Below, in pieces: positions 3,688 through 21,926 of a stretch of 64,000 nt of DNA. This stretch comes from Bacteroidales bacterium (lineage in GTDB: Bacteria > Bacteroidota > Bacteroidia > Bacteroidales > F082). Below the pieces are notes generated by a model. That model worked only from the letters and a program-made list of their open reading frames with translations. It searched no databases and was not told where the DNA came from. The translations under genes and the position numbers were made by a program. How positions within the stretch are numbered: the stretch's first letter is position 1; each line of letters begins with the position of its first letter. The stretch is from contig JALNZT010000006.1 in NCBI GenBank assembly GCA_023229135.1, forward strand, positions 1,996 to 65,995, in the 5' to 3' direction.

Positions 3688-3716
3688 GATTAAGCGCCAC
3701 TAAGCTAAAACTATTT

Positions 3717-6561: not shown

Positions 6562-6598
6562 TTTATTTATTATTTAGTTAGACAAGTAATACTAAATC

Positions 6599-6640: not shown

Positions 6641-6647
6641 GTACCGC

Positions 6648-7028
6648 CTATTTGAAATTAATGCGATCACCAAGTATAAACTCAGGCGCGTGGCTTTCAT
6701 TGAGGTTCGTAAGGTCTATTTCACTCACTTGTAATAATTTAGCCATGGTTTCATTGCCATCAGCATCGTAAAACGTGACTGAAACGAAAGGAGGTTCATT
6801 ACCATCACTATTCGTAATGTAATCCCATATCTCTTGCCAGGAAACAGAAATAGAAGCACATTTATTAAATGCAAAGCCAGGGCATATTTTAATGTTGCCA
6901 TTATTGATTTCAGCGCCTGCCTTGCCGTAAATAGGAACTTCTACACCGTAAGAATAATTCGTTGCAAATGCGAATAAGCATATCAAGAGATATTTTGTCA
7001 TTGTTGATGAGACGAATTTTTTCATCAT
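6648..7028 (-). CDS. small secreted Cys-containing protein, paralogue of 7025-7357
   Basis: 126-aa ORF with a signal-like N-terminus (LLICLFAFATNYSYG). It shares YGK[GA]G..IKICP..C[AS] motifs with its neighbour. Its start overlaps the upstream stop (ATGATGA). Confidence 0.7.
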   Translation of the reverse strand: MMKKFVSSTMTKYLLICLFAFATNYSYGVEVPIYGKAGAEINNGNIKICPGFAFNKCASISVSWQEIWDYITNSDGNEPPFVSVTFYDADGNETMAKLLQVSEIDLTNLNESHAPEFILGDRINFK

Positions 7029-7357
7029 TCAATTAGTTTAATTTTAATAGATTCACCTTGAACACCACCTTCAGGACTTATTTCAGGCAGCATAAAGACT
7101 CCAATATCATCTTTGCTAATCACAATGATGTTGCCATCAACTCCATTTATTTTTAAGTCATCGATGTCAATTGTTAAGGTCGCGCATAGCGCAGAACTAG
7201 CTTCAGGGCAAATTTTAATAGTAGTGCCTCCACTGCCATGGTCTCCAGACACACCGCCCTTTCCATATACCTTTAGTTCCGCAGCTTCGGTTGATTGAGT
7301 AAAAAGAAATGCTAAAGCTGTAAATGCTATAACAGTTAAACTTTTAAACGTTTTCAT
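7025..7357 (-). CDS. small secreted Cys-containing protein, paralogue of 6648-7028
   Basis: The track ORF 7025-7429 has an implausible N-terminal extension into the leader hairpin. The internal ATG at 7357 gives MKTFKSLTVIAFTALAFLFTQSTEA followed by AELKVYGKGG..IKICPEASSALCA. Confidence 0.7.
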   Translation of the reverse strand: MKTFKSLTVIAFTALAFLFTQSTEAAELKVYGKGGVSGDHGSGGTTIKICPEASSALCATLTIDIDDLKINGVDGNIIVISKDDIGVFMLPEISPEGGVQGESIKIKLIE

Positions 7358-7448
7358 TTTTTTTAAGTTTAGTGGTTTGTAAATATGGTAAGTAACGAAG
7401 AACGCCATCTCAATAAAATATAACATCATTGAGACGGCCCACCTCGGC

Positions 7449-7999
7449 CGAACTTATTCTTCCCCAGCCAAAAGATGTATTTAGTTGTGCAATATGGCAC
7501 AAATTGTCTATCAAATAAAAGTGTGTAGTAAAGCTCATGACAACAAGCTACATCAAAGGATACTAACCGGGCTAAACCACCATGCCTTGCTTTTGCGGGG
7601 GGGGGTAAAGCCATATTGTTCAGGATACCAGAGCGAACTTATCAGCTGCCTACGCTTTAAAGCACACAACTTAAAGATTGCGGTTAGAAAAGACCTAAAA
7701 AAACGGATAGTTTTCATAAGCTGGTTTTGAGGCTTCAAGTATAAGTACAATAAACATAAAGCACAACTTTTTTTTTGCGATTTTGCAATAAAAAAAACAA
7801 ATATTTTTTATGTTACTGAAATTCAATTGAATAAAACTGTTTTTTAAGCTTGATAAATTCTAAAAGGTGGCTGAGAGAGCTTATATTAACTAAATGCGCT
7901 GGAAAAAATGGGAGCAAAACTCAAGCTCTATAACTGATTATCAATGCCAATAGAGACGGATTTAGGGAGGCACGGATTGCAAATCCGCGCCAGCGGGTG
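7449..7999 (-). repeat. promoter/leader module copy A (heads cassette A)
   Basis: It aligns by eye along its whole length with 17736-18270, 24793-25358 and 26807-27299. It contains a G9 run at 7597-7605. Confidence 0.9.
7736..7766 (-). promoter_or_regulatory. Bacteroidota-type promoter in module A (TTG-20 nt-TATACTTG)
   Basis: The minus strand reads agTTGtgctttatgtttattgtactTATACTTGaagcc. This is one mismatch from the TAnnTTTG -7 consensus, and copies D and E match it perfectly. Confidence 0.45.
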
Positions 8000-8082: not shown

Positions 8083-9381
8083 TCACGTTTTGTCGAAAAG
8101 AATATGCTTTAATGGTTGTAATACTCTATGAAACAGGCGAATATCGTTTGTGATTATCTCAGCAGTACCTTTCAGGCGTTGTTTGAAAACAAAGGTTTTA
8201 CCATAGCTGGTTTTTAAACCTGCCGGAAAATTTACTGTTGCATAGTAAACTCCCTCGTCAGGTATTTCAGAAATATGCGAGATTACGCCTTCGAGCATGC
8301 CATACTCCATATAAGGATAATTATCCAATCTGATATTTACTTTTTGACCCGGTTCAACTTTGCCGGCTCCTTCGGCTGGTAGCAGTAGCATTCCTTTTAG
8401 CGCTCCATGCGAATCGGGTAATATGGTAAAAACCGTTTCATTAGCATTCAGGTTCTGATTTTTTGCCCAATACTTAGTAAAAACACACTTGCCTGACTGA
8501 GGTGTTCTTAGCACATATTTTTGCTCCCAGATTTCCAATTGCGCCTTCAGATTATTTCCGGCTTCAACAAGTGCTGAATACAAACTTTCGTGTTGTTGTT
8601 TGTCCAGCATTTTAAACTCTGCAATAGTACTTTGCATTTGACTGATCTGTATTTGAATATTAGCCATGTTTGTTCTGATACTTTCAAAAGCCAGTTTTCT
8701 GTTAAGGTATTGGCTTTGGGCTTTTTCAAGTTCCTGCTCCGGAATTACCTGCTCATCAAATAGTTTTACATAGCGTTTATAGTCTTTTGAGGCTAATTCA
8801 AAATCACTTTTCAAGGTTTTAAACTGCTCATTAGTAAAGTCATATAATGTGCGGTAGTCAATTAATTGAAGCTGTGTTGTATTGATTTTGTTATTATAAT
8901 AGTCTATTTCCCTATAACTTTGATAGGCATGCTGTGCCGATGTAAATGCTGAATAATAAACCTGAAGCTCACCCAACTTACCTAAGCTAATAGGAATATC
9001 CCATTTATTCAAGCTATCATTTGCCTGCCATTGGCTACTTAGCGTGTTTAAATGTTTTTTAAGAACTACAATTTCTGAATAATCGGCAGGATTTTCCACC
9101 AGTCCAAGAACTTGATCTTCATGTACTTTCTGATTTTCTATAACAAAAAAAGTATCTATTTTACCACTTACCCTGGCCTTAATCTCAGTCGGTGGAAGGT
9201 TTCCGGTAATTTCAATACTTGCATGTACTACATCAGGATATTTAAAAAACCAACTCGCTGTTATAAATAGCGCAATAATGACAAAAAATACCGAGATGCC
9301 CCAGCTCACAAGACTTCCCGGGGTTTTTCCCAGTATTTCGTCAATTTCGCCTGTGCGTATGTCTGTCAGATTTGCTGGCAT
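8083..9381 (-). CDS. HlyD-family membrane fusion / secretion adaptor protein
   Basis: 432-aa ORF with one N-terminal TM segment (VSWGISVFFVIIALFITASWFF) and a long coiled-coil middle. It lies directly downstream of the C39 ABC exporter. Confidence 0.8.
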   Translation of the reverse strand: MPANLTDIRTGEIDEILGKTPGSLVSWGISVFFVIIALFITASWFFKYPDVVHASIEITGNLPPTEIKARVSGKIDTFFVIENQKVHEDQVLGLVENPADYSEIVVLKKHLNTLSSQWQANDSLNKWDIPISLGKLGELQVYYSAFTSAQHAYQSYREIDYYNNKINTTQLQLIDYRTLYDFTNEQFKTLKSDFELASKDYKRYVKLFDEQVIPEQELEKAQSQYLNRKLAFESIRTNMANIQIQISQMQSTIAEFKMLDKQQHESLYSALVEAGNNLKAQLEIWEQKYVLRTPQSGKCVFTKYWAKNQNLNANETVFTILPDSHGALKGMLLLPAEGAGKVEPGQKVNIRLDNYPYMEYGMLEGVISHISEIPDEGVYYATVNFPAGLKTSYGKTFVFKQRLKGTAEIITNDIRLFHRVLQPLKHILFDKT

Positions 9382-9456
9382 GGAATATACTATTTTTAAC
9401 TGTTTATTTACGCTTATGAATTTTCGTTCAGTTTTTTCAAATCTAATGTTTATTGT

Positions 9457-11664
9457 TTAGTTTCCAAGTTCTAGTTGATTTTTGACCAGTTTGTAATAGC
9501 TTCCCTTAAGTTTTGTCAATTCCTGGTGCGTGCCTTGTTCGATGATACTACCTTTTTCCAGCACTACAATCTGATCTGCATTTTTAACAGTGCTGAGCCT
9601 GTGGGCAACCACCACAACAGTTCGTCCTTTGAAAAATTCATTCAGGTTTTCCATGATCACTTTTTCGTTGTTGGCATCCAGCGCATTAGTCGCCTCATCA
9701 AAAAAAATAAATTGAGGGTCTTTATAGACTGCCCTGGCAATTAATATACGCTGTTTTTGTCCTTGACTAAGTCCAACTCCTTCCTGACCGATCATGGTAT
9801 TAAAGCCAAGTGGTAGTGTTTCGATATGTTCCAATATATTGGCAACCCGAGAAGCATGTAGTAGCTTACTGAAATCCAACTCGTCTTCGCTGATGCTGAT
9901 GTTGCCGGCAATGGTATCAGAAAAAATAAAGCCATCCTGCATTACAGCACCCACTTTGGAACGCCAGACACTGGCAGAAAGATTATCCACCCGAAATGGG
10001 CCTATACGTATTTCACCCGCCACAGGCTTGTAAAAGCCCAAAAGCAGTTTGAGCAAAGTGGTTTTTCCACTTCCCGATGTGCCTACAATTGCTGTTACTT
10101 TGTTTTGAGGGATTTTGAGGTCTAGCGCGTTAAGTACCAAAGGCGAACGAGGCCCGTCATACTGGTATGAAACGCCACTTAACAAGATGTCCTGTTCTGT
10201 GTCAAGTTCCCTTATTTTTACATTCATCTTATCGGCCGGTTCTTCATCTTCACGCAGGTGTATTTCACCCAATCTTTCAAGACTGATTTTGGCGTCTTGG
10301 GCAGCACGTACAAATCCTATCATTTGGTCAACCGGGGCATTCATCATACCAATGATGTACTGCACGGCCATCATCATACCGAGCGTCATCTCGCCTTTTA
10401 CAACCGCGTAAGCCGCCATAAAGGTGATGAGTATATTTTTTGACTGGTTAAAAAACGTTGCCCCGGCCTGTTGGTACTGGTTGAGTGCTAAGCCTTTTAT
10501 ATTTACGCGAAACAACCTGGCCTGTATTTTTTCCCACTCCCATCGTTTCTGTTTCTCGCAGTTGTTAAGTTTAATCTCCTGCATACCAGTAATCAATTGT
10601 ATCAGGTTACTTTGATTACCGGCCATTTGCGCGAAGCGTTTAAAATCCAATTCGCGGCGTTTTTTCATAAAGACCAGCACCCAAAGGGTATATAAAATGC
10701 TTCCGGCAAGGAAAACGAGTAAGATGCCCACATTATATACGCCAAGCACGATGGCAAATACAGCAAGGTTCACCACGGCAAACAAGATTTGCAAGGAAGA
10801 GGCTGTCAAAAAGCTTTCGATACGGCTATGATCACCAATGCGTTGCATCAGGTCGCCAATCATTTTGCTGTCAAAATAGCCCAGGGGCAGCTTCATCAGC
10901 TTGATCAGGAAATCGCTTATAAGCGAAATGTTGATGCGTGTGCTGATATGTAGCAATATCCAGCTACGAATAAACTCAACGGCTGTCTGGCCAAAAAATA
11001 AAACCAATTGCGCTATCAGCACTAAAGTGATAAAATTGAGATCACGTGTGTTGATACCCACATCTACTACTGCCTGGGTGAGGAATGGAAAGATAAGCTG
11101 TATGATACTGCCCAACAGCATGCCCAATATAAGCTGTACTAAAAGTTTGCGGTGCGGGCGCAAATAGGAGAACAAAAACCGGAAGTTTTTTTTGTTGACT
11201 ATTTCTTCTTCGTTGGTATAGAAATCCGGTGTGGGTTCCAGCAACAGACAAACGCCCATGTCCTCGTCTTCGTTTTTAGTGCTTACCCAGCCTTTTAGGA
11301 ATTCTTCCCTGCTATACGTAATAAGCCCGTGCGCAGGATCGGCTACTTTTACTTTGTCTTTTTTCTTCCCGCTAATCTCATATACCACCACAAAATGCTG
11401 CTGTTTCCAGTGGGCGATGCATGGTAGCGGGACTTCGTTAGCCAGCTTGTCGAAGGTGATTTTTACACCCATAGTTCTGAAACCGATTTTCTCGGCTGCA
11501 TCGCTGATGCCGAGCAAGGAAACCCCTTCACGGTTAATATGACAATACTCCCTTAGCACGGGCAAACTGTGTCGCTTGCCGTAGTGTCTGCTAATCGCAT
11601 CCAGGCAGGCCGGGCCACAGTCGCGGGCGTCGAGTTGGGGGGTGAAATTATATCTCACTTTCAA
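9457..11664 (-). CDS. peptidase C39 domain-containing ABC transporter (double-glycine leader cleavage/export)
   Basis: 735-aa ORF. It has the N-terminal C39 Cys motif PQLDARDCGPACL, six-TM region, Walker A GTSGSGKTTL, ABC signature LSQGQKQRI and Walker B IFFDEATNALD. Confidence 0.93.
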   Translation of the reverse strand: MKVRYNFTPQLDARDCGPACLDAISRHYGKRHSLPVLREYCHINREGVSLLGISDAAEKIGFRTMGVKITFDKLANEVPLPCIAHWKQQHFVVVYEISGKKKDKVKVADPAHGLITYSREEFLKGWVSTKNEDEDMGVCLLLEPTPDFYTNEEEIVNKKNFRFLFSYLRPHRKLLVQLILGMLLGSIIQLIFPFLTQAVVDVGINTRDLNFITLVLIAQLVLFFGQTAVEFIRSWILLHISTRINISLISDFLIKLMKLPLGYFDSKMIGDLMQRIGDHSRIESFLTASSLQILFAVVNLAVFAIVLGVYNVGILLVFLAGSILYTLWVLVFMKKRRELDFKRFAQMAGNQSNLIQLITGMQEIKLNNCEKQKRWEWEKIQARLFRVNIKGLALNQYQQAGATFFNQSKNILITFMAAYAVVKGEMTLGMMMAVQYIIGMMNAPVDQMIGFVRAAQDAKISLERLGEIHLREDEEPADKMNVKIRELDTEQDILLSGVSYQYDGPRSPLVLNALDLKIPQNKVTAIVGTSGSGKTTLLKLLLGFYKPVAGEIRIGPFRVDNLSASVWRSKVGAVMQDGFIFSDTIAGNISISEDELDFSKLLHASRVANILEHIETLPLGFNTMIGQEGVGLSQGQKQRILIARAVYKDPQFIFFDEATNALDANNEKVIMENLNEFFKGRTVVVVAHRLSTVKNADQIVVLEKGSIIEQGTHQELTKLKGSYYKLVKNQLELGN

Positions 11665-11715
11665 ATCAATTCTTGCTTAAGCATTTACTTGCCTTTCTCC
11701 AGAACAACATCATTA

Positions 11716-12996
11716 TTATTCAGTCTTATCATTATCTTGCCATGTTTTTTTAACAGGATCGTAATTACAAAGATTCATAATACCAAAGTAAAGCTCATAA
11801 CTAGATATTGGCTGACATAAATATCGGTATACACAATTTTTACAGGGTTCAACTTTTGCCCTTGTTAAATACCAGGAGCTATCTTCTATCGTATGAGCGT
11901 TGCGCAATATTTCAATCAGTTTGTTGCTTTTTATATTGCCAATATGAGGCATGTTCAAATTAGCATGAACATCACCATTGGGAAGAATAAATAACTTCCC
12001 AAAGCTTAAATGGTTTATAAACAATCTGGAGGCAATTTCACGATGAGTTAATGACTGATTCTCAACATCTGCCTTGTTACTTTTTATCACTTCAAATAAA
12101 GCATTTGACGTTGAGTTATCTATGAATGGGATCAATTCATAGGTAATGCCTTGTGTAATAAAAATTTGCTCCAAGTCTGAAATATCATTCACATCACGAA
12201 TAATTATCTTAAAAACTATTCTTGAGATGGAATCCTCATTCATCGAGAAAAAGTCAAATAATAACTTACGTTCGGTTTTGAAATCGACCCATAAAATAAA
12301 TTTTAAGTTCTCTGTATAAGTAAGTGTTTTATTATCTAATAATTCTATTACAGCGTCAGAGATATAAGCATTATAATGAACAAAACAATCCTTAAAAAAA
12401 TCGCACGTATCCTTTATTTTCTTTAGTGAAATCTCATTTCCATACAATTGAACTTTTCTAAGGCCCGGAAAAGCTTCACCCCTAAAAAAACGTAAAACCA
12501 AGTTACTACTTTCATACTGAGCCTCATTTAGGTTTATGATTGGAGCATTGATTTGTTTACTACCCGACGTATTAAATGCTGAATCAGTAATGTTTGTTGA
12601 GGAATCTCCGTAATATATAAACACCTCTTTTAGTGAATATCGGAGGTTCAAAGTTTGCCATGTTTTATCATTATTTATGTTATTAACATCGAAGTTCAGT
12701 TTTGGCGCAAAAGGCAGGATTAAAGGACGATAATGACTTTCAATTAAATCCCCGTGAAAATAATCTCTGCATAAAACTATGAATGCTGTGATTTCATCGT
12801 CAATCAACTCATTTTCATCCAAAAGGGTAATTCTATTAACATCATCTTTGAGTAATCTCGAAATGAATTCAACCCCTTTTATTCCTTTAAATAGAAAGGT
12901 AGAAGTTATACTATTAATCGTATTATGTAGCAAAATTTGATTATCAATGAGATCTGAATGAACATAAGGTTCAAGATAAAAAAAGGAATTAAGCAT
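11716..12996 (-). CDS. pseudo-rSAM protein (SPASM-like Cys cluster, no CxxxCxxC), partner of the radical SAM maturase
   Basis: The track ORF extends to 13086. ATG 12996 (MLNSFFYLEPYV) overlaps the rSAM stop as ATGCTTAA. The C-terminus has CKNCVYRYLC..C, and there is no radical-SAM Cys triad. This matches my memory of the GG-Bacteroidales pseudo-rSAM family. Confidence 0.7.
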   Translation of the reverse strand: MLNSFFYLEPYVHSDLIDNQILLHNTINSITSTFLFKGIKGVEFISRLLKDDVNRITLLDENELIDDEITAFIVLCRDYFHGDLIESHYRPLILPFAPKLNFDVNNINNDKTWQTLNLRYSLKEVFIYYGDSSTNITDSAFNTSGSKQINAPIINLNEAQYESSNLVLRFFRGEAFPGLRKVQLYGNEISLKKIKDTCDFFKDCFVHYNAYISDAVIELLDNKTLTYTENLKFILWVDFKTERKLLFDFFSMNEDSISRIVFKIIIRDVNDISDLEQIFITQGITYELIPFIDNSTSNALFEVIKSNKADVENQSLTHREIASRLFINHLSFGKLFILPNGDVHANLNMPHIGNIKSNKLIEILRNAHTIEDSSWYLTRAKVEPCKNCVYRYLCQPISSYELYFGIMNLCNYDPVKKTWQDNDKTE

Positions 12997-14476
12997 AGCG
13001 CGTTTTTCTCCATATTTCTGAGTAAACATCAGTAAATGCCTCAAAGAATGAGTAGTAATCCCTAAGAAGATCAATGTGATCTTCATTTTTTAGATGGGAA
13101 CATTTTACTGTTTTATCTTCCTTTATTATATTTAGAAACAAACATTCTTTGCATAGGTTGACTCGATAACAGTTATTGCATTTCCCTTTTAATTTTTCAA
13201 AGTGATTATTATACATCATAACAATCTTTTCATAATCTAAAAATACTTTTCCATTTTGAACATTACCTAATGAATACTCATGCGCAATGGCTTCGCAGGG
13301 CAGTATTTTTCCCTTTGCTGTGACAAACATTCTTTTGCTAAACGGATTGCAGGTGCCAGTAGGAAGAAAATTGCCCTTAGTATTGTAATTAAATAAGTCA
13401 TCAATTGTAGAAAAATGGTTATTCGTATAGTTTCTAAGAAACATGTTATAGCTCAAAGATTCACCTGAGGAAAGAAAACACTTTTTATGCTCTGATTTAT
13501 TAAGATCGTAATTATGACCATCGTAATTGAATTTTTTTCCAACTAATAGCGGATTTACCTCGGTGCCGGCAATTGATTTTTTGAATTCTCTCCAAATAAA
13601 TTCCTGAATAGAAATGAAATCATTTCTGTCGTGTAGTACCGCATTAAAAAGTACATTTTGTTCAAAAAATGAAGGGTAGTTCCTCTTAACCAAGTGGATG
13701 TTCTTGAATACAACCTTAAATGATTCTTTGTTATTAGGAAAAAGTCTGTAGCTATTCGCAAATGAGTCTCCGTCAAGACTAATAGTAAGCGCAAAGTTGT
13801 TTTTTGCAATGAATTCAATGTGTTGGTTTAACAAAACACCATTAGTTGTCATGTTAAACCTAAAGTTGAGGGGAGTGTTTTTGCTCAATTCTTCAATATA
13901 GGAAACTAATTCCTCAATGAAAGGAAAGTTCAATAACGGTTCGCCACCAAAAAATCCGATGAATATTTCTTTTTCAAGATTACTGTTAACTTTACTAAGC
14001 CACTTTGGTATTAAGTATTCTATTACTGCTTTAGCATTAGCAATACTTAAATCAAGATTATTCCGTGAATCATGAGTGTGATAATTATCTCCATAAAAGC
14101 AGTACTTACACTGGAGATTGCATCTTTCAGTAATTTCAAACACTAGAGCGCGTAAGTTTGATAACTCATAGTTAATATCGGAAGGCTTTAGTCGCCCTCC
14201 AATAATTTGTTCGTTGCTAATAGTATTAAAAAATCCGTTTTCTTTTAGGAACTCAAACTTACGTTTATAGTATATATCTGCTTTCTCCTTTGTCTTAAAA
14301 AGTAAGCTATCAGATTCGTCTTGATTTTCCTCAGTAATGGACCTATTGTTTGTTGCGTTGAAATCTTTTAGTTTTATATACCTAACTACCATTGGATTCA
14401 TATAAATAATATGCTTCTTATAAAAGCTAAATAAGTATTGATTATGTTTGGTAGTGAATAAATTAAAATCAGGCAT
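12989..14476 (-). CDS. radical SAM/SPASM domain peptide maturase
   Basis: 495-aa ORF with the radical SAM triad ITERCNLQCKYCFYG. SPASM motifs are GTCNPFSKRMFVTAKGKILPCEA and CNNCYRVNLCKEC. Confidence 0.9.
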   Translation of the reverse strand: MPDFNLFTTKHNQYLFSFYKKHIIYMNPMVVRYIKLKDFNATNNRSITEENQDESDSLLFKTKEKADIYYKRKFEFLKENGFFNTISNEQIIGGRLKPSDINYELSNLRALVFEITERCNLQCKYCFYGDNYHTHDSRNNLDLSIANAKAVIEYLIPKWLSKVNSNLEKEIFIGFFGGEPLLNFPFIEELVSYIEELSKNTPLNFRFNMTTNGVLLNQHIEFIAKNNFALTISLDGDSFANSYRLFPNNKESFKVVFKNIHLVKRNYPSFFEQNVLFNAVLHDRNDFISIQEFIWREFKKSIAGTEVNPLLVGKKFNYDGHNYDLNKSEHKKCFLSSGESLSYNMFLRNYTNNHFSTIDDLFNYNTKGNFLPTGTCNPFSKRMFVTAKGKILPCEAIAHEYSLGNVQNGKVFLDYEKIVMMYNNHFEKLKGKCNNCYRVNLCKECLFLNIIKEDKTVKCSHLKNEDHIDLLRDYYSFFEAFTDVYSEIWRKTRYA

Positions 14477-14492
14477 AAATTATCTATTATCG

Positions 14493-15752
14493 TTAATAAT
14501 GATTGTTAATAAACTCCCTAATGTAATCATTTAAATCTGATCGTTTTATCTTTAATACTTCCTCGATACAGTTGTAGAAATCTTCTTCATTGTCAGCTTC
14601 ACACAGATAAAGTTCTTTTACTTTTTCGTAGCCGCCCTGGCGGTATGCAATGTCAACAATTGCTGCATGAATGGTGTAAATAAAAGGCGTTTGCATTTCA
14701 TCATCTTTGTAATGCTTTAAACTTTCAATGTATTTACCATCCAAAGGATAGCCAAACGTTAAATAGCCATCATCATTATAATAATAGCAAACAAGACTCC
14801 CGGAAAGATCAATCCAGGGGTTGGTATTTAGATAATGTTTGAGTCTGTAAATATGGAATAGGTAGTTTTTTGTTAATACCCCACCAAAGTAGGTAGCGAT
14901 CCCTTCCTCAAAATAAGTGGTTTTTTCTTTTTGGAAAAAGTTAAGTAACAGATGTATTATTTCATGAAGGTCATCTTCACCAGTTCCACCAGCTATAATA
15001 ATATTATTAGCTGATAGTGCCATAGCTTCTCTATTACTCAATCCGGAAATAAAATCTGTATCATAGTGTTGCACACCAAACAATATTGCAGCATCAGTTA
15101 GATTATCAGCTAAAACGTATGTAATCGAATCATTGAATTCAATTCCGAATCCATCTTTGAAAGTTTGTATTTTGGATTGCATAGCGATAGCCTTTTCAGT
15201 ATTAAACACATAGTCGCGATCATAATAGAATCTGATTAAACCAATTCTTTTTGTTTCTAACATATTCTTATGATGTGAGAAAGCATTGGTAAGCTTAAAC
15301 TCTCCATTGGCTTGTTTTTTTATTGGGACAGTGATCATGTATGAAGGGATTCGCTTCCACATTTCTTCAGGATAGGCCAAAAACATGGCTCTTAACTCAA
15401 ACAAACTTTCCTCCCGTTTGATAATGCCCAATAAATATTCCTTTTCCATTGGGTAAAAAACGTTTCCACTAGCCCTTTTAAAAGAATAAAATAAATCCGG
15501 GAATTTGTATTGATCAATTTCGTTTTGATCCCAATATTTATGTAATTCCTCAGGAAACTCGTTTAATATGTAGCTTTTTTTTGCACTGTGATAATTAAGC
15601 TCGTCAAGGTAGCTTTCCCATAAATCATAAATTTCTGTAAATCCGGTGAATGTTGTGTCAACGAATGGACTAATTATTGTTTCCGGTCGTGTTTGTGTTT
15701 GGCTGCTAAGAGAAATCAATAAACCGACAAATAGTAAGAATATTCTTTTCAT
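14493..15752 (-). CDS. secreted HExxH (gluzincin-like) putative zinc metallopeptidase, paralogue 1
   Basis: 419-aa ORF with a signal-like N-terminus MKRIFLLFVGLLISLSSQ and the motif LHEIIHLLL...YFEEGIATYFGG (HExxH plus a downstream Glu). Confidence 0.6.
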   Translation of the reverse strand: MKRIFLLFVGLLISLSSQTQTRPETIISPFVDTTFTGFTEIYDLWESYLDELNYHSAKKSYILNEFPEELHKYWDQNEIDQYKFPDLFYSFKRASGNVFYPMEKEYLLGIIKREESLFELRAMFLAYPEEMWKRIPSYMITVPIKKQANGEFKLTNAFSHHKNMLETKRIGLIRFYYDRDYVFNTEKAIAMQSKIQTFKDGFGIEFNDSITYVLADNLTDAAILFGVQHYDTDFISGLSNREAMALSANNIIIAGGTGEDDLHEIIHLLLNFFQKEKTTYFEEGIATYFGGVLTKNYLFHIYRLKHYLNTNPWIDLSGSLVCYYYNDDGYLTFGYPLDGKYIESLKHYKDDEMQTPFIYTIHAAIVDIAYRQGGYEKVKELYLCEADNEEDFYNCIEEVLKIKRSDLNDYIREFINNHY

Positions 15753-15785
15753 ATTTATAATTCATTAAGAATAACACCAAATAGA

Positions 15786-15820
15786 AGTTAAAATCCTGTC
15801 TAAATAGCAGGATTTTAACT
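15786..15820 (-). terminator. hairpin immediately after a precursor gene
   Basis: agttaaaatcctg (15786-15798) pairs with caggattttaact (15808-15820). On the minus strand it is followed by ttctatttggtgttattc. Confidence 0.55.
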
Positions 15821-15832
15821 CCTAATCAATAG

Positions 15833-16030
15833 TTAATATTCAAGATTATTCTTTGGGCCAGTTATTCCTGCACTTTGCCGGTTTGACTGTGTTTGGTCAT
15901 GAATTGAGCCCGGATCACCGCAATCGCAACTGCAACTGCAAGCTGGTGTAGAACCTCCACCACCCTGATCTCCACCTTTAATGTGGTTTAATGAATCTTG
16001 GGTCATTTTGATTAATTTTAGATTTTTCAT
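15833..16030 (-). CDS. RiPP precursor peptide with a double-glycine leader and CxCxCxC core
   Basis: MKNLKLIKMTQDSLNHIKGG | DQGGGGSTPACSCSCDCGDPGSIHDQTQSNRQSAGITGPKNNLEY. It lies next to rSAM, C39-ABC and HlyD genes. Confidence 0.85.
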   Translation of the reverse strand: MKNLKLIKMTQDSLNHIKGGDQGGGGSTPACSCSCDCGDPGSIHDQTQSNRQSAGITGPKNNLEY

Positions 16031-16111
16031 ACTTTGAATTGTTAAATTGTTAATAATCGTGATAAACTATAAATAAATTGTAAAGCCGAACATAAAAAGT
16101 CAGGCATAAGC

Positions 16112-17371
16112 TTAATAATGATTGTTAATAAACTCCCTTATGTAATCATTTAAATCTGATCGTTTTATCTCTAATACTTCTTCAATGCAATTATAGAACT
16201 CCTCTTCATTGTCAGCTTTACAAAGATAAAGTTCTTTTACTTTTTCGTAGCTGCCCTGGCGGTAAGCAATATCTACAATTGCTGCATGTATCACGTAAAT
16301 AAAGTTAGACTTCATTTCTTTGTCACTAAAGTATTGTTTTATAAATGAATCGCTGGCAGGTGGATTCCCAAAATGGATATTGTTGTTGTCATCTTTATAA
16401 TATGCAGACAGACTGCCTGAAAGATCAATCCAGGGATTTTCCGATAAATAATTCTTTAATCTGCTGATGTGAAAGGGGTATTCATGCGTTAAAGAACCGC
16501 CAAAATATGTAGCAATTCCTTCCTCAAACCAATGATAAGAGCTTCTTTCTCCTAGTTTGCTAAGTAATAAATGAATAATCTCATGGAAATGATCCTCCCC
16601 GATTCCGCCGCTTATAACCATATTATTAGTTTTCAGGGCTCTGGCTTCATACATATTCAAGCCTGTCAAAAAATCCATATCAAAGTGTTGCACACCAAAC
16701 AATTTTGCAGCATCAGTCATATTGTCTGATAAAATATATGTAATTGAATCATTAAACACAATTCTAAATCCCTCTATAAAGGCTTGTATTTTTGATTGCA
16801 TTGCAAGTGCTTTTTCTTTATTGAACTTGTAGTCGCGATCATAATAGTACCTGACTAAACCAAGTCTTTTTGTCTGTAGCTTAGATCTGTAAGATGTGAA
16901 AGCATTGGTAAGCTTAAAACCCCCATCAGTTTGTCTTTTCACTGGGACAGTGATAATGTATGAAGGGATTCTCCTCCACATTTCTTCAGGATAGGTCAAA
17001 AACATGGTTCTTAATTCAAATAAATTCTCCTCCCTTTTAACAATGCCCAATAAATATTCCTTTTCCATTGGATAGAAAACGTTTCCGTAACTTCTTTTAA
17101 AAGAATAATACAAATCTGGAAAATCATATAACTCTAACTCCTTTTGATCCCAATATTTGAGCAGCTGGTCTGGAAACTGATTTAATATATAACTGTTTTT
17201 TGCGCTGACTTTGTTTAAATCATTCAGGTAGCTTTCCCATAAATCATAAATTTCTGTAAATCCGGTGAATGTTGTGTCAACGAATGGGCTAACAATGGTT
17301 TGTGGTCGTGTTTGTGTTAAGCTACAAAGAGAAATCAATAAACCGACAAATAGTAAGTATATTCTTTTCAT
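16112..17371 (-). CDS. secreted HExxH (gluzincin-like) putative zinc metallopeptidase, paralogue 2
   Basis: 419-aa ORF colinear with 14493-15752. It has the motif FHEIIHLLL...WFEEGIATYFGG, and the last roughly 50 aa are nearly identical to paralogue 1. Confidence 0.6.
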   Translation of the reverse strand: MKRIYLLFVGLLISLCSLTQTRPQTIVSPFVDTTFTGFTEIYDLWESYLNDLNKVSAKNSYILNQFPDQLLKYWDQKELELYDFPDLYYSFKRSYGNVFYPMEKEYLLGIVKREENLFELRTMFLTYPEEMWRRIPSYIITVPVKRQTDGGFKLTNAFTSYRSKLQTKRLGLVRYYYDRDYKFNKEKALAMQSKIQAFIEGFRIVFNDSITYILSDNMTDAAKLFGVQHFDMDFLTGLNMYEARALKTNNMVISGGIGEDHFHEIIHLLLSKLGERSSYHWFEEGIATYFGGSLTHEYPFHISRLKNYLSENPWIDLSGSLSAYYKDDNNNIHFGNPPASDSFIKQYFSDKEMKSNFIYVIHAAIVDIAYRQGSYEKVKELYLCKADNEEEFYNCIEEVLEIKRSDLNDYIREFINNHY

Positions 17372-17402
17372 ATTTATAATTGATTAATAGTAATACCAAA
17401 TA

Positions 17403-17441
17403 GGAGTTAAAATCCTATATAAAGAGTAGGATTTTAACTCC
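17403..17441 (-). terminator. hairpin immediately after a precursor gene
   Basis: ggagttaaaatccta (17403-17417) pairs with taggattttaactcc (17427-17441). It is followed on the minus strand by a T-rich stretch. Confidence 0.55.
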
Positions 17442-17451
17442 TTTTCAATAG

Positions 17452-17649
17452 TTAATACGCAAAATTATTCCTAGAGCCAGTTATTCCTGCACTTTGCCGG
17501 TTTGAATATGTTTGCTGATATGTAGTGTCGCCAGAACCACAATCACAACTGCAACTGCAAACTGGTGTCGAACCTCCACCTCCCTGTTCTCCACCTTTAA
17601 TATGACCTAATGAATTTTGGGTCATTTTGATTAATTTTAGATTTTTCAT
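17452..17649 (-). CDS. RiPP precursor peptide with a double-glycine leader and CxCxCxC core
   Basis: MKNLKLIKMTQNSLGHIKGG | EQGGGGSTPVCSCSCDCGSGDTTYQQTYSNRQSAGITGSRNNFAY. Confidence 0.85.
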   Translation of the reverse strand: MKNLKLIKMTQNSLGHIKGGEQGGGGSTPVCSCSCDCGSGDTTYQQTYSNRQSAGITGSRNNFAY

Positions 17650-17735
17650 ACTTTGAATTGTTAGACTGTAAATAATTGTGAGTAGTTAAAAGTGAATTGT
17701 GAAGCCGTCCTTAAAAGAAAGACGGCACAATTCAA

Positions 17736-18270
17736 TCGAACTTATTCTTCCCCAACCAGAAAATATATTTTGTCGTGCAACAAGGCACAAATTGTTTATC
17801 AAATAAAAGTGCGTGGGATAATTCATGACAACAGTCTGCATTAAAGCTATCTAGCCGGGCTATACCACCATACCTTACTTTTGCGGGGGGGGGGTAGGAT
17901 AGCAGAGCAAGCTAATCAGCTGCGTACGCTTTAAAGCACACGGCTTGAGGATTGCGTTTAGAAAAGACCTAAAAAAACGGATAGTTTTCATAAGCTGGTT
18001 TTGAGGCTTCAAGTATAAGTACAATAAACATAAAGCGCAACTTTTTTTTGCGATTTTGCAATAAAAAAAACAAATATTTTTTATGTTACTGAAATTCAAT
18101 TGAATAAAACTGTTTTTTAAGCTTGATAAATTCTAAAAGGTGGCTGAGAGAGCTTATATTAACTAAATGCGCTGGAAAAAATGGGAGCAAAACTTATGCT
18201 TTACAACTGAACATCAATGGCAAAAGAGACGGATTTAGGGGGGCACGGATTGCAAATCCGCGCCAGCGGG
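17736..18270 (-). repeat. promoter/leader module copy B (heads the complete rSAM operon)
   Basis: It aligns with copies A, D and E. It has a G10 run at 17885-17894, and its upstream end abuts a truncated gene at 18270/18271. Confidence 0.9.
18010..18040 (-). promoter_or_regulatory. Bacteroidota-type promoter in module B (TTG-20 nt-TATACTTG)
   Basis: Same sequence context as module A, about 355 nt upstream of the precursor ATG at 17649. Confidence 0.45.
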
Positions 18271-18841
18271 GAGAAATCTTATTTCCATACAATTGAACTT
18301 TTCTAAGACCTGGTAAAGCTTCATCTCTAAAAAAACGCAAAACCAAGTCACTATTTTTATACTGAGCCTCATTTAGGTTTGTGATTGGAGCATTGATTTG
18401 TTTATTACCCGACGTATTAAATGCTGAATCAGTTATGTTTGTTAAGGAATCTCCATGATATATAAACAACTCATGAAATGTATTTCTAAGGTTCATTGTT
18501 CGCCAGGTTCTTTCATCATTGAGATGTTCAAAATCAAAATTGAGTTTAGGGGCAAAAGGCATGATCACCGGCCGATAATCGCTTTCGATTATATCACCAT
18601 AATAATATTCCCTACATATTTCTATGAATTCCCTGATCTCACTATTAACCAATTCAAATTCACTTAATAGAGCAATTCTGTTAACATCATCATCGAGTAA
18701 TCTTTTTGCAAAACCAACGGATTCTTTATTTCTAAATAGGTAAAGAGAAGTTTTGTGACTTAAGGTATTATATAATAGAATATGGTTATCAATCAAGTCA
18801 GCATGAACAAATGGTTCGATATAGAAGTAGTTGTTAGGCAT
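18271..18841 (-). pseudogene. 3'-truncated pseudo-rSAM gene (only the first ~190 codons remain)
   Basis: From MPNNYFYIEPFVHADL.. to ..LRKVQLYGNKIS it is colinear with 11716-12996. It then reads into leader module B (PRWRGFAIRAP..). Its start overlaps the rSAM stop as ATGCCTAA. Confidence 0.85.
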
Positions 18842-20318
18842 AACGTGTTTTTCTCCAAATTTCTGAATACAATTCTGGCAAAGCCTCAAAAAAAGAATAA
18901 TAGTCGTTTAAAAGTCCCTTGTGACTTTCGTTATTAAGGAAAGAACATTTCAATGATTGCTCATCATTTAGCATGTTTAGAAACAAACATTCTTTACATA
19001 AATTGACTCGATAACAACTATTACATCTACCTTTCAGTTTCTCAAAATAGCCATTGTACATTTTGACTATCACTTTTGGTTCCAAATTTACAGTTCCACC
19101 TTGAACGTTTCCAAGGGCATATTGATGAGAAATAGCTTCGCATGGAAGTATTTTGCCTTTTGCTGTTACAAACATTCTTTTGCTAAAAGGGTTGCATGTT
19201 CCGGTTGGAAGGGAGTTCGAAATGGCATTGAAATTATACAAATCGTCTATCGCTGCAAAATGATTATTTGAATAGTTACGCAAAAACATATTATAGCTTA
19301 ATGACTCGCCCGAAGACAGAAAACATCTTTTGTGCCCAGATTTCCTAAAATCATAACTATGTCCATCATAATTGAAATTGTTTCCTGTCAACAAAGGGTT
19401 AACTTCAGATCCTTGAATAGATTTGTTAAACTCTCTCCATGCAAATTGCTGTGTTGATATATAATCATTCCTATCATGCAGAACTGCATTAAATAGCACA
19501 TTACGTTCAAAATAATCAGGATGCTTTTCCTTTACCAAACGTAAGTTCTTAAAAACTATGTCAAAAGATTCTTTTCCATTCGGAAAAAGCCTGTAACTAT
19601 TTGCAAAAGCCTCACCATCCAGGCTAATAGTGAGAGCGAAGTTGTTGTTTGAAATGAAATCGATGTATTTGTTTAGCAAAACACCGTTTGTTGTCATATT
19701 AAATCTAAACGTTAAACCGGTATTTTTGCTTACTTGGTTAATATACAAAACAAACGCTTCAATAAAACTAAAGTTCAACAAAGGCTCACCGCCAAAAAAA
19801 CCTATAAAAATTTCCTTTTCAGGATTTTTATTTAACTTACTAAGCCATTTTGGAATAAGATAATCAACTATCGCTCTGGCATCTAAAATATTCAAATCAA
19901 GATTCATCCGCGAATCATGTGTGTTATAACTATCTCCATAGAAACAATATTTACATTGTAGATTACATCTTTCTGTGATTTCAAATACAATTGCCCGTAG
20001 GTTTGACAGTTCGTACTCAATATCAGATTCTTTCAGGCGACCACCAATTATTTGTTCATTATCAATGTTTTCAAAAAATCCGTGTTCCCGAAGAAATTCG
20101 TATTTCTTTTTGTAATATACCAACTTATCATTTTTGTTTTGATTTACTAAGTTGGCTGTTTCTTTTTTATCTACCAATTGATTTTCATTGTTTTGCATTT
20201 TGAGTTTTTGATCGTGTGTCAAACTACTCATTAAGGGATGAAAATTAATCGAATACTTTTTATTAAAGCTAAATAGATAGTTATTGTATTTAGTTGAAAA
20301 GGTAGTGTAATCAGGCAT
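18834..20318 (-). CDS. radical SAM/SPASM domain peptide maturase (second copy)
   Basis: 494-aa ORF with ITERCNLQCKYCFYG, GTCNPFSKRMFVTAKGKILPCEA and CNSCYRVNLCKEC. It is colinear with 12989-14476. Confidence 0.9.
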   Translation of the reverse strand: MPDYTTFSTKYNNYLFSFNKKYSINFHPLMSSLTHDQKLKMQNNENQLVDKKETANLVNQNKNDKLVYYKKKYEFLREHGFFENIDNEQIIGGRLKESDIEYELSNLRAIVFEITERCNLQCKYCFYGDSYNTHDSRMNLDLNILDARAIVDYLIPKWLSKLNKNPEKEIFIGFFGGEPLLNFSFIEAFVLYINQVSKNTGLTFRFNMTTNGVLLNKYIDFISNNNFALTISLDGEAFANSYRLFPNGKESFDIVFKNLRLVKEKHPDYFERNVLFNAVLHDRNDYISTQQFAWREFNKSIQGSEVNPLLTGNNFNYDGHSYDFRKSGHKRCFLSSGESLSYNMFLRNYSNNHFAAIDDLYNFNAISNSLPTGTCNPFSKRMFVTAKGKILPCEAISHQYALGNVQGGTVNLEPKVIVKMYNGYFEKLKGRCNSCYRVNLCKECLFLNMLNDEQSLKCSFLNNESHKGLLNDYYSFFEALPELYSEIWRKTRYA

Positions 20319-20332
20319 CCTATAGCTGGTGT

Positions 20333-21583
20333 TTAGTAATTCGTATTTATAAAATTTCTCAAATATGTATTCATATCAGCTCGCTTTATCTTCAATACTT
20401 CTTCAATACAGTTGTAGAATTGATCCTCGTTATCAGCTTTGCAGAGAAATAGTTCTTTTACTTTTTCGTACCCACCATCTTTAAATGCAATTTCGCATAA
20501 AACAGCATGGATCATATACTGGAAATTATAGCTTGACTCTAAATCCCTAAACTGTAAAATTTCTTCATTCTCTTTCTTTAGCATCTCATCTTCAAGATTA
20601 TTAATACTTACCTTTGAATGACCAAAAAAGCTCTGAGACAAATCAATCCATACATTTTGGTCTAAGAATGTTTTAAAACGTGGCATATGCTCTTTATATG
20701 TATAACCAACATGCTCACCAAAATATGTAGCAACACCTTCCTCGAATAAAGCATATTTCCCTCTTTCATAGTTGCTTAATAAAATATGAATTATCTCGTG
20801 AAAGTAGTTCTCTCCACCGCCTCCAATGTAAACCATGTTATTTAAAACCGTGTAACCTCCTTGAATGGTGTTTGAAACACTACCATAGTCGAAATAATTG
20901 TAATCAACACCAAACAATTGTGAAATATCGGTCGTCCTATGTGATAAAACATAGTTGATAGGTTTTGAGCATTGGAGGTTAAAACCCTTTTTAAACTGCT
21001 CAATTTTCAAGCCTAATAAAGCTGTAAGACTATCATTCAATATATATTCCATTGGATAATAATATTTTATGCTATTAGGTAATTCTGTTTTTACAATACT
21101 AGAATGATGATTGAAGGCATTTTCAAGTTGGAGTCCATTCTCTGTCTTTCTAACATATATGGTTAAAAATGCCGAGGGGAACCCTCTAAATGGGGATTCC
21201 TCTGATGTTTTGAACATCGTTTTAATTTGGTACAGGTCATCTCTCCGATTGGTTATGCCTAGAAAATATTCAGTATCGTTTGTATACCATACATTTCCTT
21301 TAGACCGAAAATACGCATAGTACAGATCGGGGAAGTCAAACATAGAATTATCTTTTTCAGACCAATAGACTTTTAATTGCTCTGGCATATCATCTAGGAG
21401 GGCACCATTTTTAAGGTTTACAACATTTAATTCATCCATATAACTTTTCCAAAACTTAAAAACCTCCTTAAATTGTGGAGGTATCGTATCAGCAAAAGGA
21501 TAGATTTCAATATTTCTTTGTATTTGACCAAAAGAGATATGAAATGAATAGAAAAGGAATAGAAATAGAAGTGTTTTTTTCAT
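20333..21583 (-). CDS. secreted HExxH (gluzincin-like) putative zinc metallopeptidase, paralogue 3 (more divergent)
   Basis: 416-aa ORF with signal-like MKKTLLFLFLFYSFHISFG, the motif FHEIIHILL...LFEEGVATYFGE and a conserved C-terminal block GGYEKVKELFLCKADNEDQFYNCIEEVLKIKRAD. Confidence 0.6.
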   Translation of the reverse strand: MKKTLLFLFLFYSFHISFGQIQRNIEIYPFADTIPPQFKEVFKFWKSYMDELNVVNLKNGALLDDMPEQLKVYWSEKDNSMFDFPDLYYAYFRSKGNVWYTNDTEYFLGITNRRDDLYQIKTMFKTSEESPFRGFPSAFLTIYVRKTENGLQLENAFNHHSSIVKTELPNSIKYYYPMEYILNDSLTALLGLKIEQFKKGFNLQCSKPINYVLSHRTTDISQLFGVDYNYFDYGSVSNTIQGGYTVLNNMVYIGGGGENYFHEIIHILLSNYERGKYALFEEGVATYFGEHVGYTYKEHMPRFKTFLDQNVWIDLSQSFFGHSKVSINNLEDEMLKKENEEILQFRDLESSYNFQYMIHAVLCEIAFKDGGYEKVKELFLCKADNEDQFYNCIEEVLKIKRADMNTYLRNFINTNY

Positions 21584-21643
21584 TTTTGAATTACCCTTAA
21601 TACCTTTATTAATAAATAATTAAGAAATGTTAAAACTAAAAGA

Positions 21644-21712
21644 TTAAGGCTGTATATTATAATTCAAATTCATACTGTTGATGAAAATAGTGAGCATAAG
21701 ATACAGCCTTAA
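21644..21712 (-). terminator. 12-bp stem hairpin (large loop) after the third precursor gene
   Basis: ttaaggctgtat (21644-21655) pairs with atacagccttaa (21701-21712). Confidence 0.35.
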
Positions 21713-21722
21713 ACTAAGTCAA

Positions 21723-21926
21723 TTATGTTGGATTAGCTATTGACTTCATTGTTGAGTGATTAGTTGCACTTGTGGTTGTTGACCTATTCATATTATATGT
21801 TGTATCTTCACCACTACAACTACATGTACAGCTACAAGCTGGGGTTGTACCACCTCCGCCTTCTTCACCACCTTTGATTTGACTTAATGCATTCTGAGAC
21901 AAATTGATTAATTTTAAGTTTTTCAT
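21723..21926 (-). CDS. RiPP precursor peptide with a double-glycine leader and CxCxCxC core (divergent tail)
   Basis: MKNLKLINLSQNALSQIKGG | EEGGGGTTPACSCTCSCSGEDTTYNMNRSTTTSATNHSTMKSIANPT. Confidence 0.8.
   Translation of the reverse strand: MKNLKLINLSQNALSQIKGGEEGGGGTTPACSCTCSCSGEDTTYNMNRSTTTSATNHSTMKSIANPT

Follow-up and report, generated by a model that had tools for sequence, protein, structure and literature searches.

Which chemistry is carried out by an operon that pairs a radical S-adenosylmethionine (SAM) maturase with a similar protein lacking the SAM-cluster motif, and that encodes one HExxH protein for each of its two precursor peptides? The question is raised by a minus-strand operon at positions 8083-17649 of the window, that is, the whole 64,000-nucleotide stretch analysed here (positions 1,996 to 65,995 of contig JALNZT010000006.1, Bacteroidales bacterium assembly GCA_023229135.1), to which all coordinates refer. 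The operon consists of eight intact open reading frames (ORFs) in the order precursor, HExxH protein, precursor, HExxH protein, radical SAM (rSAM)/SPASM enzyme, pseudo-rSAM, C39-ABC exporter and HlyD adaptor (Table 1), and the coordinates, order and motifs reported in a first-pass annotation of the sequence were all recovered. In our reading, to which we give a probability of roughly one half, the product is a secreted, thioether-cross-linked peptide of the sactipeptide or ranthipeptide type, with the pseudo-rSAM acting as a non-catalytic partner in its maturation.

Relation to the GG-Bacteroidales system

Haft and Basu are said to have described, in 2011, a GG-Bacteroidales rSAM system made up of the maturase TIGR04148, the precursor TIGR04149 and the pseudo-rSAM TIGR04150, and it was to these families that the operon had first been assigned. 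When the hidden Markov models (HMMs) of the families were run, the assignment held for the rSAM (388.5 bits against a curated cutoff of 300), but not for the pseudo-rSAM (178.9 bits against 250) or for the precursors: with the TIGR04149/PF14406 cutoff at 25 bits, precursor B scored 12.3, precursor C (from a second, partial operon copy) scored 8.6, and precursor A had no match at E ≤ 10; none of them matched Pfam. Because the precursors and the pseudo-rSAM fall below the TIGR04149 and TIGR04150 cutoffs, the locus is, judged by its sequences, a divergent clade and no textbook member of the system. Like the GG-Bacteroidales system (IPR026418), it has an rSAM/SPASM enzyme followed by a pseudo-rSAM of the same size, a double-Gly precursor upstream, and a peptidase-containing ATP-binding cassette transporter (PCAT) with HlyD downstream; unlike the family loci examined (L010-L013; L numbers denote related loci), it pairs a predicted Sec-exported gluzincin with each precursor.

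The association of the enzyme pair with GG-leader peptides has stood in TIGRFAMs/InterPro since 2011 and is mentioned in papers on Bacteroidales genome mining (PMC4573289, PMC10352776); the kind of system is known, and what is particular to this locus is a rare clade of precursors that score below the family model, together with a divergent pseudo-rSAM without the CxxxCxxC triad and a paired secreted gluzincin. The view that no product or chemistry has been characterised for these families agrees with the searchable literature, in which no product, chemistry or pseudo-rSAM role is reported for TIGR04148 or TIGR04150; a 2023 paper states explicitly that pseudo-rSAMs have no assigned function. 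Clusters with rSAM enzymes alone dominate the mining of ribosomally synthesised peptides with post-translational modifications (RiPPs) in Bacteroidales (PMC10352776), and the TIGR04148/TIGR04150 pair is one of the commonest RiPP enzyme sets in Bacteroidota. The locus is a worthwhile experimental target because this whole family is without a product; it is compact, complete and conserved, and its simple core, with four Cys, three Gly and one Pro invariant, makes it a tractable entry point.

The maturase and the cysteine-rich core

The rSAM enzyme (12989-14476) contains the motifs CNLQCKYC and CNNCYRVNLCKEC and matches the Pfam Radical_SAM and SPASM domains. Eight members of its family conserve C119/C123/C126, GGEP, C376, C394, C433-x2-C436-x5-C442-x2-C445 and a distal Cys, a set that by alignment constitutes a complete seven-Cys SPASM region. 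The next-best families, all below cutoff, were CcpM (205 bits), lachnocin (145), PapB (134, cutoff 340), RumMC (114, cutoff 720), SCIFF (109, cutoff 425), nif11, QhpD (96, cutoff 453) and anSME (85); with PapB, RumMC, SCIFF and QhpD all far below their cutoffs, the enzyme belongs to none of these characterised sactisynthase or ranthisynthase families. CcpM, lachnocin, PapB, RumMC, SCIFF and QhpD are nevertheless Cys-peptide maturases whose characterised members form thioethers, and among solved structures the thioether synthase CteB comes nearest (5WGG, E = 2e-24, or 9e-33 with the family profile), all of which supports the thioether reading. SCIFF/CteB and PapB (freyrasin), which supply the closest solved structure (CteB) and the nearest HMM families with characterised members, resemble the window in their seven-Cys SPASM region and their Cys-rich core; they differ, beyond the low scores, in CX3-type spacing, in Thr or Asp acceptors and in having no pseudo-rSAM partner. 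The cyclophane synthase ChlB (9GM3) was ruled out as a functional guide, only its rSAM core being matched, and a literature search for CcpM/TIGR04068 returned annotation mentions and unrelated acronyms only.

In the window precursors the core contains G23-G26, followed by S/T-T/A-P-x and C-S-C-S/T-C-D/S-C. Across eight precursors IKGG, G24-G26, P29, C31, C33, C35, C37, S49 and S53 are invariant. The alternating Cys had been taken to lie outside known sactipeptide and ranthipeptide patterns, which was not borne out: StsA (CxCxCx4GxGxG) and BlaA (CxCx4GxG) have that donor spacing (PMC10288494). CC or CxC clusters directly after the GG are also common in other precursors linked to TIGR04148/TIGR04150. 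Closely spaced Cys directly follow the GG in L010 (...CQLACFCDC...), L011 (...CWGSCSNMC...), L012 (TCCTCACA...) and L013 (APGDCCICQ...), and several GG peptides found through a shared upstream element (described below) are Cys-clustered as well (for example SDSPLCGNTCDCTCSCD... and EPQGQCSCGCHH... after the GG).

StsA and its relatives offer the nearest precedent for such a core. In StsA (P-C-x-C-x-C-x4-G-x-G-x-G), StsB makes three nested Cys-to-Gly sactionines, complete processing requires StsC, a separate RiPP recognition element (RRE) protein, and BlaA behaves likewise (PMC10288494). The window shares with the StsA/StsB/StsC and BlaA/BlaB systems the alternating Cys donors, a Gly placed four positions from the Cys tract and a Pro before the first Cys, and with StsA/StsB/StsC an rSAM/SPASM enzyme accompanied by a separate, here putative, peptide-binding partner. 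In contrast, the Gly acceptors of StsA are C-terminal, whereas the conserved Gly tract of the window precedes the Cys and is unbroken (GGGG in place of GxGxG), and the Cys number four; StsB is MftC-like and actinobacterial, whereas the window rSAM is closest to the CcpM, PapB and CteB families; and StsC is a small RRE, whereas the window partner is a full-length degenerate rSAM. The Gly tract lies four residues, including the invariant Pro, from the alternating Cys, and in a hairpin register with residues 27-30 as the loop, C31 and C33 face the invariant G26 and G24 in 8/8 precursors. This upstream register for the acceptors is suggestive, not proof. A downstream register (loop 38-41) was given less weight, as its partner residues are not conserved.

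The maturase might instead modify the Cys-rich core by some reaction that forms no thioethers, with the Cys ending as disulfides or as a metallothionein-like CxCxCxC metal site; we consider this unlikely. Examples would be oxidation of Cys to formylglycine or dehydroalanine-type residues (anSME), epimerisation, C-C or C-O cross-links with the Tyr/Ser/Thr tail, or S-methylation. Such readings draw on the match of the rSAM to anSME (85 bits) and to several cyclophane- or C-C-forming SPASM enzymes, on the invariance of S49 and S53 in the tail, on the polyfunctionality of SPASM enzymes of similar sequence (PMC10288494), and, by our own reasoning, on the alternating spacing, which would place the thiols on one face of a beta-strand and suit metal chelation. 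However, the top-scoring families are all Cys-peptide maturases and CteB is the best structural match; moreover, because Cys clusters after the GG are the one feature common to otherwise unrelated precursors of this rSAM family, the Cys themselves appear to be the site of action. Thioether formation on these Cys is what we infer for the maturase.

The pseudo-rSAM and its family

The start of the pseudo-rSAM (11716-12996) overlaps the rSAM stop by 8 nt (ATGCTTAA; context ...TATGCTTAA...), as the first-pass annotation had indicated; a longer ORF at 11716-13086 (456 aa) was rejected as the pseudo-rSAM, as the N-termini of the family and the TIGR04150 alignment begin at the ATG at 12996. TIGR04150 was the sole strong match and aligned over the full length, but other relatives score 334-430 bits, and by the curated criterion this protein is, on sequence, a divergent TIGR04150 relative and no member. 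Its gene immediately follows that of a TIGR04148 rSAM, a GG-leader peptide is encoded close by, and the same order is found in L001 and L007-L013. An exhaustive profile search returned 1,756 relatives, 925 of them at E ≤ 1e-30, and the TIGR04150-type family comprises at least 925 clusters at 50% identity.

In an alignment of 74 sequences, only P91, G333, R379 and four Cys (C385, C388, C394 and C410) are invariant. These Cys align with C433, C436, C442 and the distal Cys of the neighbouring rSAM, and the positions of rSAM C376, C394 and C445 are occupied by N328, N346 and I397. A single site, CX2CX5C...C, is left, with no CX3CX2C (S133, S139 and N142 stand at the triad positions, confirming its absence) and no Aux I ligands; from the anSME and CteB structures, we take the retained set to be the Aux II ligands and the lost set those of Aux I. 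The AlphaFold2 (AF2) model (mean predicted local distance difference test score, pLDDT, 88.5) had its best Foldseek matches in the complete RiPP maturases SuiB (1e-7), SkfB and EpeE, and predicts a protein whose N-domain is RRE-like and whose rSAM barrel is accompanied by a SPASM-like cluster domain at the C-terminus, without the SAM-cluster ligands. A sequence search against the PDB gave no meaningful match, only the predicted-fold comparison being informative.

The missing triad is not a property of the family as a whole. Intact CxxxCxxC motifs, together with a fourth Cys after a conserved KQ, were found in 41 of the 74 sampled relatives (55%), and the five triad-bearing relatives tested all pass TIGR04150. 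The triad of these relatives aligns, in the family profile, with the genuine rSAM motif of SuiB; triad-bearing and triad-less proteins alike score 334-430 bits on TIGR04150; and the two kinds interleave on a rough neighbour-joining tree (star-like, no support values) with at least nine changes of state. These three observations indicate, at the sequence level, that the 'pseudo' state is recurrent degeneration within a true rSAM lineage, and the family name misfits about half of the members. Because CX3CX2C has been lost recurrently in an otherwise conserved family, the results suggest that the conserved core role of the family is independent of SAM cleavage. At L013 (1087-9254), a precursor that reads APGDCCICQYGE... 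after its GG is surrounded by a triad-bearing TIGR04150 protein, its rSAM, two LanC-like proteins and a pair of glycosyltransferases; this matches an rSAM and LanC architecture reported for Bacteroides (PMC10352776).

That the pseudo-rSAM is itself catalytic, in a SAM-independent manner through its Fe-S site or barrel, or is the true substrate-binding subunit of an obligate heterodimer, is improbable in our estimation, although the retention of the full fold, the invariant four-Cys site and the invariant R379, Pro and Gly would be expected of it. The translational coupling to the rSAM, the size of the family and the annotation of the SPASM-only protein of 'grasp-with-spasm' systems (TIGR04193) as a maturase point the same way. 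Yet the protein has neither the SAM-binding triad nor the Aux I ligands, and its GGEP-like motif has degenerated to YGNE; we know of no precedent for an rSAM fold that is catalytic without its cluster. A non-catalytic partner of the thioether-forming maturase is the role that we prefer for this protein.

Precursor conservation, leader and export

The same gene order, small ORFs included, was found in L001/L002, L007, L008 and L009, which are different Bacteroidales-type metagenome-assembled genomes (MAGs; at least four others); the first-pass annotation had named a lack of conservation of the small ORFs in homologous loci as grounds for rejecting its reading, and they are kept in all of these. 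L007 holds orthologues of both precursor/HExxH pairs of the window (A/1 and B/2), and L009 represents the minimal form, with one precursor, HExxH, rSAM, pseudo-rSAM, PCAT and HlyD. Only six related clusters were found among 5.8 billion proteins, which makes the precursor family a very small one. When orthologues were compared over precursor residues 21-37, 155 synonymous and 106 non-synonymous codon differences were counted, and the Cys (TGC/TGT) and Gly (GGA/GGT/GGC) codons differ between loci while the encoded residues are fixed. Given this synonymous excess and the codon variation at fixed Cys and Gly, the small ORFs are, as judged from codon comparison, genes under purifying selection.

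Double-Gly leaders have hydrophobic consensus residues at -4, -7, -12 and -15, and these positions are I, L, M/L and L, all hydrophobic, in 8/8 precursors. With their GG and a partner whose Peptidase_C39 domain is matched at E = 3e-34, the precursors are double-glycine-leader, PCAT-processed peptides. Owing to the hydrophobic leader positions and the strong C39 domain, cleavage after the GG and export of the core by the C39-ABC transporter are well supported by analogy; the exporter (9457-11664) also matches bacteriocin-ABC families in NCBIfam, and the HlyD gene downstream of it is retained in L007 and L009. The exported core would be 45 aa and acidic (for precursor A, ~4.6 kDa and pI 4.6). 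Strong stem-loops lie directly after the precursor stops, including that of precursor C (~21650-21715), with folding energies of -21 to -27 kcal/mol and z = -4 to -7; in L001 the stem-loop (8160-8195) is followed by a U-run, and L009 has no stem-loop. RiPP operons commonly use stem-loops after precursor genes to maintain an excess of precursor mRNA, and those of the window, which fit this pattern, are likely to be attenuators or mRNA-stabilising hairpins.

The paired HExxH proteins

The HExxH proteins have no Pfam match, no NCBIfam match at E ≤ 10 and no PDB sequence match, and their family is small (19 clusters). The AF2 model of HExxH-1 (pLDDT 85) has as Foldseek neighbours M1 aminopeptidases (IRAP, PepN and ERAP1; E about 2e-5), M9 collagenases and the M30 protease lugdulysin, with modest TM-scores of 0.30-0.37. 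Invariant among 17 sequences are H263, E264, H267, E283, E284 and Q20, the last of which closes a hydrophobic N-terminal signal at the point where cleavage is predicted. An invariant Gln there fits Sec export and N-terminal pyroglutamate formation, which is typical of Bacteroidetes. From sequence and model together, each is predicted to be a Sec-exported gluzincin peptidase of an unnamed family. The HExxH motif with a downstream Glu ligand is present and the fold matches M1 domains I and II, but there is neither a GxMEN motif nor a Pfam Peptidase_M1 match, only a GGxGE[ND] loop directly before HExxH; the protein is gluzincin-like and no M1 member. The analysis adds, in this way, a secreted gluzincin family linked to RiPP precursors.

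The window pairs A/1 and B/2 each have an orthologous pair in L007, and the precursor tail types co-vary with the peptidase clades; the 1:1 pairing is old and maintained, and fits trimming and self-protection alike. Homologues also occur away from RiPP genes: one with 41% identity stands alone, outside any RiPP cluster, in L003/L004 (10001-11254), beside a Por_Secre_tail protein and dihydroorotate-dehydrogenase-like genes, and L005 has a frameshifted orphan HExxH gene (10001-10930). For this reason the family is regarded as a secreted peptidase that was recruited into the operon.

In lanthipeptide systems the leader may be removed in two steps, by the PCAT and then by an extracellular protease (CylA, LicP), and M1-type RiPP peptidases such as AplP are known. 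The window resembles these systems in a PCAT that would cut at the GG, in a second, extracytoplasmic or dedicated peptidase within the cluster, and in the M1-like gluzincin fold; it differs from CylA, LicP and AplP in that its peptidase is of an unnamed family, has no GxMEN and no Pfam/MEROPS-type match, and is paired 1:1 with the precursors.

It is quite improbable that the HExxH proteins are HEXXH oxygenases dependent on alpha-ketoglutarate (alphaKG) and Fe(II), which in the manner of ChlH, BpmH and PflC would hydroxylate the peptide or cleave it by oxidation. Recent work on zincin-like HEXXH proteins of RiPP clusters has shown them to act as hydroxylases or oxidative cleavers that depend on alphaKG (PMC12636437), and the HExxH gene does sit between precursor and rSAM; nevertheless, the HEXXH-hydroxylase family (IPR026337) was unmatched, as was NCBIfam at E ≤ 10, and the predicted Sec signal with its invariant Q20 would place the protein outside the cytoplasm, away from alphaKG, in a host that is probably an anaerobe. 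Furthermore, the fold neighbours are M1, M9 and M30 hydrolases, and the Glu pair E283/E284, which would supply the third ligand, is invariant as in gluzincins.

A proposed route to the mature peptide

With the peptidases read as gluzincins and the pseudo-rSAM as non-catalytic, the following route to a thioether-bridged peptide is proposed. The 65-aa precursors would be translated in excess, the stem-loops probably raising the ratio of precursor to enzyme. In the cytoplasm, the TIGR04148 rSAM/SPASM enzyme would cleave SAM reductively and abstract a hydrogen atom from acceptor residues, and the thiols of C31, C33, C35 and C37 would be joined to those carbons in up to four S-C bridges, each with a change of -2 Da. 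By analogy with StsA, the best-conserved acceptor candidates are invariant residues of the Gly tract (Gly24 and Gly26), which could give a tight 'mirror' hairpin with C31-G26 and C33-G24 links, the remaining Cys being linked elsewhere. The translationally coupled pseudo-rSAM, which lacks CX3CX2C and so should be unable to cleave SAM, would hold the peptide with its RRE-like N-domain and barrel, and its single retained [4Fe-4S]-type site could serve structure or electron transfer. The C39-ABC/HlyD machinery would then cut after IKGG and export the 45-aa core. Finally, the Sec-exported gluzincin may act outside the cytoplasm by trimming the N-terminal E-Q-G-G-G-G-S up to the invariant X-Pro bond; alternatively, it may degrade re-entering peptide as self-protection.

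Several points weigh against this route. The function of rSAM/SPASM enzymes cannot be read reliably from sequence (PMC10288494). CX3CX2C is retained by over half of the TIGR04150 members, which may be active enzymes, and for that reason a purely scaffolding role is not established even across the family. The mirror-hairpin register gives an unproblematic Gly partner to C31 and C33 but not to the other two Cys, since Q/E/S22 stands opposite C35, and the partner of C37 would be G20, the P1 residue at which the leader is cut; to our knowledge, the acceptors of all characterised hairpin sactipeptides are C-terminal to the Cys. CcpM and lachnocin, the nearest HMM families of the maturase, are themselves uncharacterised as far as we know. 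Lastly, with a homologue of ~41% identity outside any RiPP context, the link of the peptidase to the peptide may be looser than the 1:1 pairing implies.

A more specific version of the thioether reading, which we put forward tentatively and regard as doubtful in its full form, is a 'reverse ladder', in which the alternating Cys are bridged to the upstream Gly tract across the S-T-P-x turn, with N-terminal acceptors, a catalytically dead rSAM paralogue would be an obligatory scaffold, and a periplasmic gluzincin of a new family would serve each precursor as activator or immunity factor. If it were true, it would be the first chemistry for the whole TIGR04148/TIGR04150 family.

The cassette island and its shared upstream module

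The operon lies in a low-GC island (GC 0.32-0.38, against 0.41-0.45) between a DUF4835 gene and recN. The island extends over about 4.6-30.2 kb; besides all peptide cassettes it holds, at 27486-29876, a MacB/FtsX-like permease. The final ~60 nt of the DUF4835 gene (3684-4622) recur twice downstream (~4535-4595, 27301-27388 and 30153-30240), bracketing the island in a manner that looks like att-type direct repeats; no tRNA or integrase was found at the island borders. The first-pass description of the operon as complete is correct for 8083-17649, but a second copy in tandem, directly upstream and truncated, a C39 fragment, the upstream element repeated five times and the cassette island around them had been missed; an intact equivalent of that second copy is present in L008.

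Table 1. Features of the operon, its partial second copy and associated elements (window coordinates)
Feature	Position	Strand	Remarks
Precursor A, 65 aa	17452..17649	-	leader MKNLKLIKMTQNSLGHIKGG, core EQGGGGSTPVCSCSCDCGSGDTTYQQTYSNRQSAGITGSRNNFAY
Stem-loop directly 3' of precursor A	17402..17442	-	RNA fold -24.4 kcal/mol, z = -6.45
HExxH-1, 419 aa	16112..17371	-	predicted Sec-exported gluzincin-type metallopeptidase, unnamed family
Precursor B, 65 aa	15833..16030	-	paralogue of A (75% identical), same Gly4-STP-CSCSCDC core
Stem-loop directly 3' of precursor B	15782..15824	-	RNA fold -27.5 kcal/mol, z = -7.35
HExxH-2, 419 aa	14493..15752	-	paralogue of HExxH-1 (71% identical)
rSAM/SPASM peptide maturase	12989..14476	-	TIGR04148 family; CX3CX2C, GGEP, seven-Cys SPASM
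Pseudo-rSAM	11716..12996	-	divergent, TIGR04150-like; CKNCVYRYLC present, no CxxxCxxC
C39-ABC peptidase-containing transporter	9457..11664	-	Pfam Peptidase_C39 (3e-34), ABC_membrane, ABC_tran
HlyD-family membrane-fusion adaptor	8083..9381	-	TIGR01843 E = 1e-19, below cutoff
Putative upstream promoter/5'-leader module	17650..18270	-	one of five copies of a ~570-nt element
Second, partial operon copy	18194..21926	-	precursor C, HExxH-3, rSAM-2, truncated pseudo-rSAM
Precursor C	21723-21926	-	EEGGGGTTPACSCTCSCS... after GG
HExxH-3	20333-21583	-
rSAM-2	18834-20318	-	TIGR04148 382.8 bits
Truncated pseudo-rSAM	18194-18841/18889	-	cut after ~215 aa at start of repeat element; TIGR04150 positions 1-133 matched
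C39 fragment, 103 aa, farther upstream	22370-22681		91% DNA identity to 11414-11646 (start of exporter gene)
Module copies	7432-7997, 17720-18270, 21992-22165, 24790-25356, 26791-27343		also in L001, L007, L014-L043

The truncated genes of the island (pseudo-rSAM-2, two C39 fragments and junctions at the repeat element) and the frameshifted orphan HExxH gene of L005 might suggest that the operon is a decaying or silent remnant in a recombining cassette island, with no functional product, but this is highly improbable, as each of the eight genes of 8083-17649 is intact, several MAGs carry orthologous operons that are likewise intact, and the precursors are under purifying selection. C39 fragments between cassettes were also observed in L001 and L007, and those of the three loci suggest that recombination has stacked cassettes upstream of an exporter that they share.

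Five minus-strand cassettes of the island, namely small secreted proteins, the main operon, the truncated second operon, a GG-peptide/ATP-grasp cassette and two lipoproteins, each start with the same ~570-nt element. Within it a poly-C run (6-15 C, its length varying by copy) is followed by a conserved block and a hairpin. In the alignment with L001 the block ...TTGCAC..AC.AAATA....GG.TGGGGAAGAATAAGTTCGA is invariant and ends GGGGAAGAATAAGTTCGA, and the consensus that includes other loci is ...TGCA..AC.AAA...GG.T.GGGAAGAATAAGTTCGA. Measured by per-sequence z-scores and helix-start offsets, the hairpin begins 11-13 nt after the block in 21/33 copies, with variable sequence, 26 distinct stems and a mean z of -3.4. 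RNAalifold on a MAFFT alignment of 29 leader regions gave no pairs, the arms of variable length being out of register, and an Rfam scan of 4000-31000 at E ≤ 1 returned only a chance fragment of transfer-messenger RNA and no known RNA family. The block was found in 30 metagenome stretches, where in most cases the genes downstream encode Cys-rich GG-leader peptides or small lipoproteins. By its sequence and placement, the module looks like a shared promoter and 5'-leader for secreted-peptide cassettes, with a predicted start near GGGAAGAAUAAG, and the analysis adds it as a module that appears to organise diverse cassettes of this kind in the lineage.

Among the neighbours that share the element is a graspetide-type cassette (22820-24683) with a GG-leader peptide (24474-24683), a 234-aa protein and a TIGR04192-like ligase of the ATP-grasp type (114 bits, below cutoff); it has no SPASM partner, and L001 and L007 hold a fuller grasp-with-SPASM version ahead of a similar PCAT. 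Grasp-with-SPASM systems of Bacteroidetes (TIGR04192/TIGR04193), which are covered by ATP-grasp 'branch 5' (PMC8939145), are neighbour cassettes in the same island and in L001/L007; they resemble the main operon in having the same kind of GG-leader peptides, the same PCAT and a SPASM-domain protein without an rSAM domain, but their modifying enzymes are ATP-grasp proteins and their SPASM-only protein is shorter, with a fuller Cys set. At 4765-7429, after one module copy, two paralogous small secreted proteins (134 and 126 aa, with a common KICP...C motif) and a 598-aa secreted protein are encoded, with no Pfam domain in any of the three.

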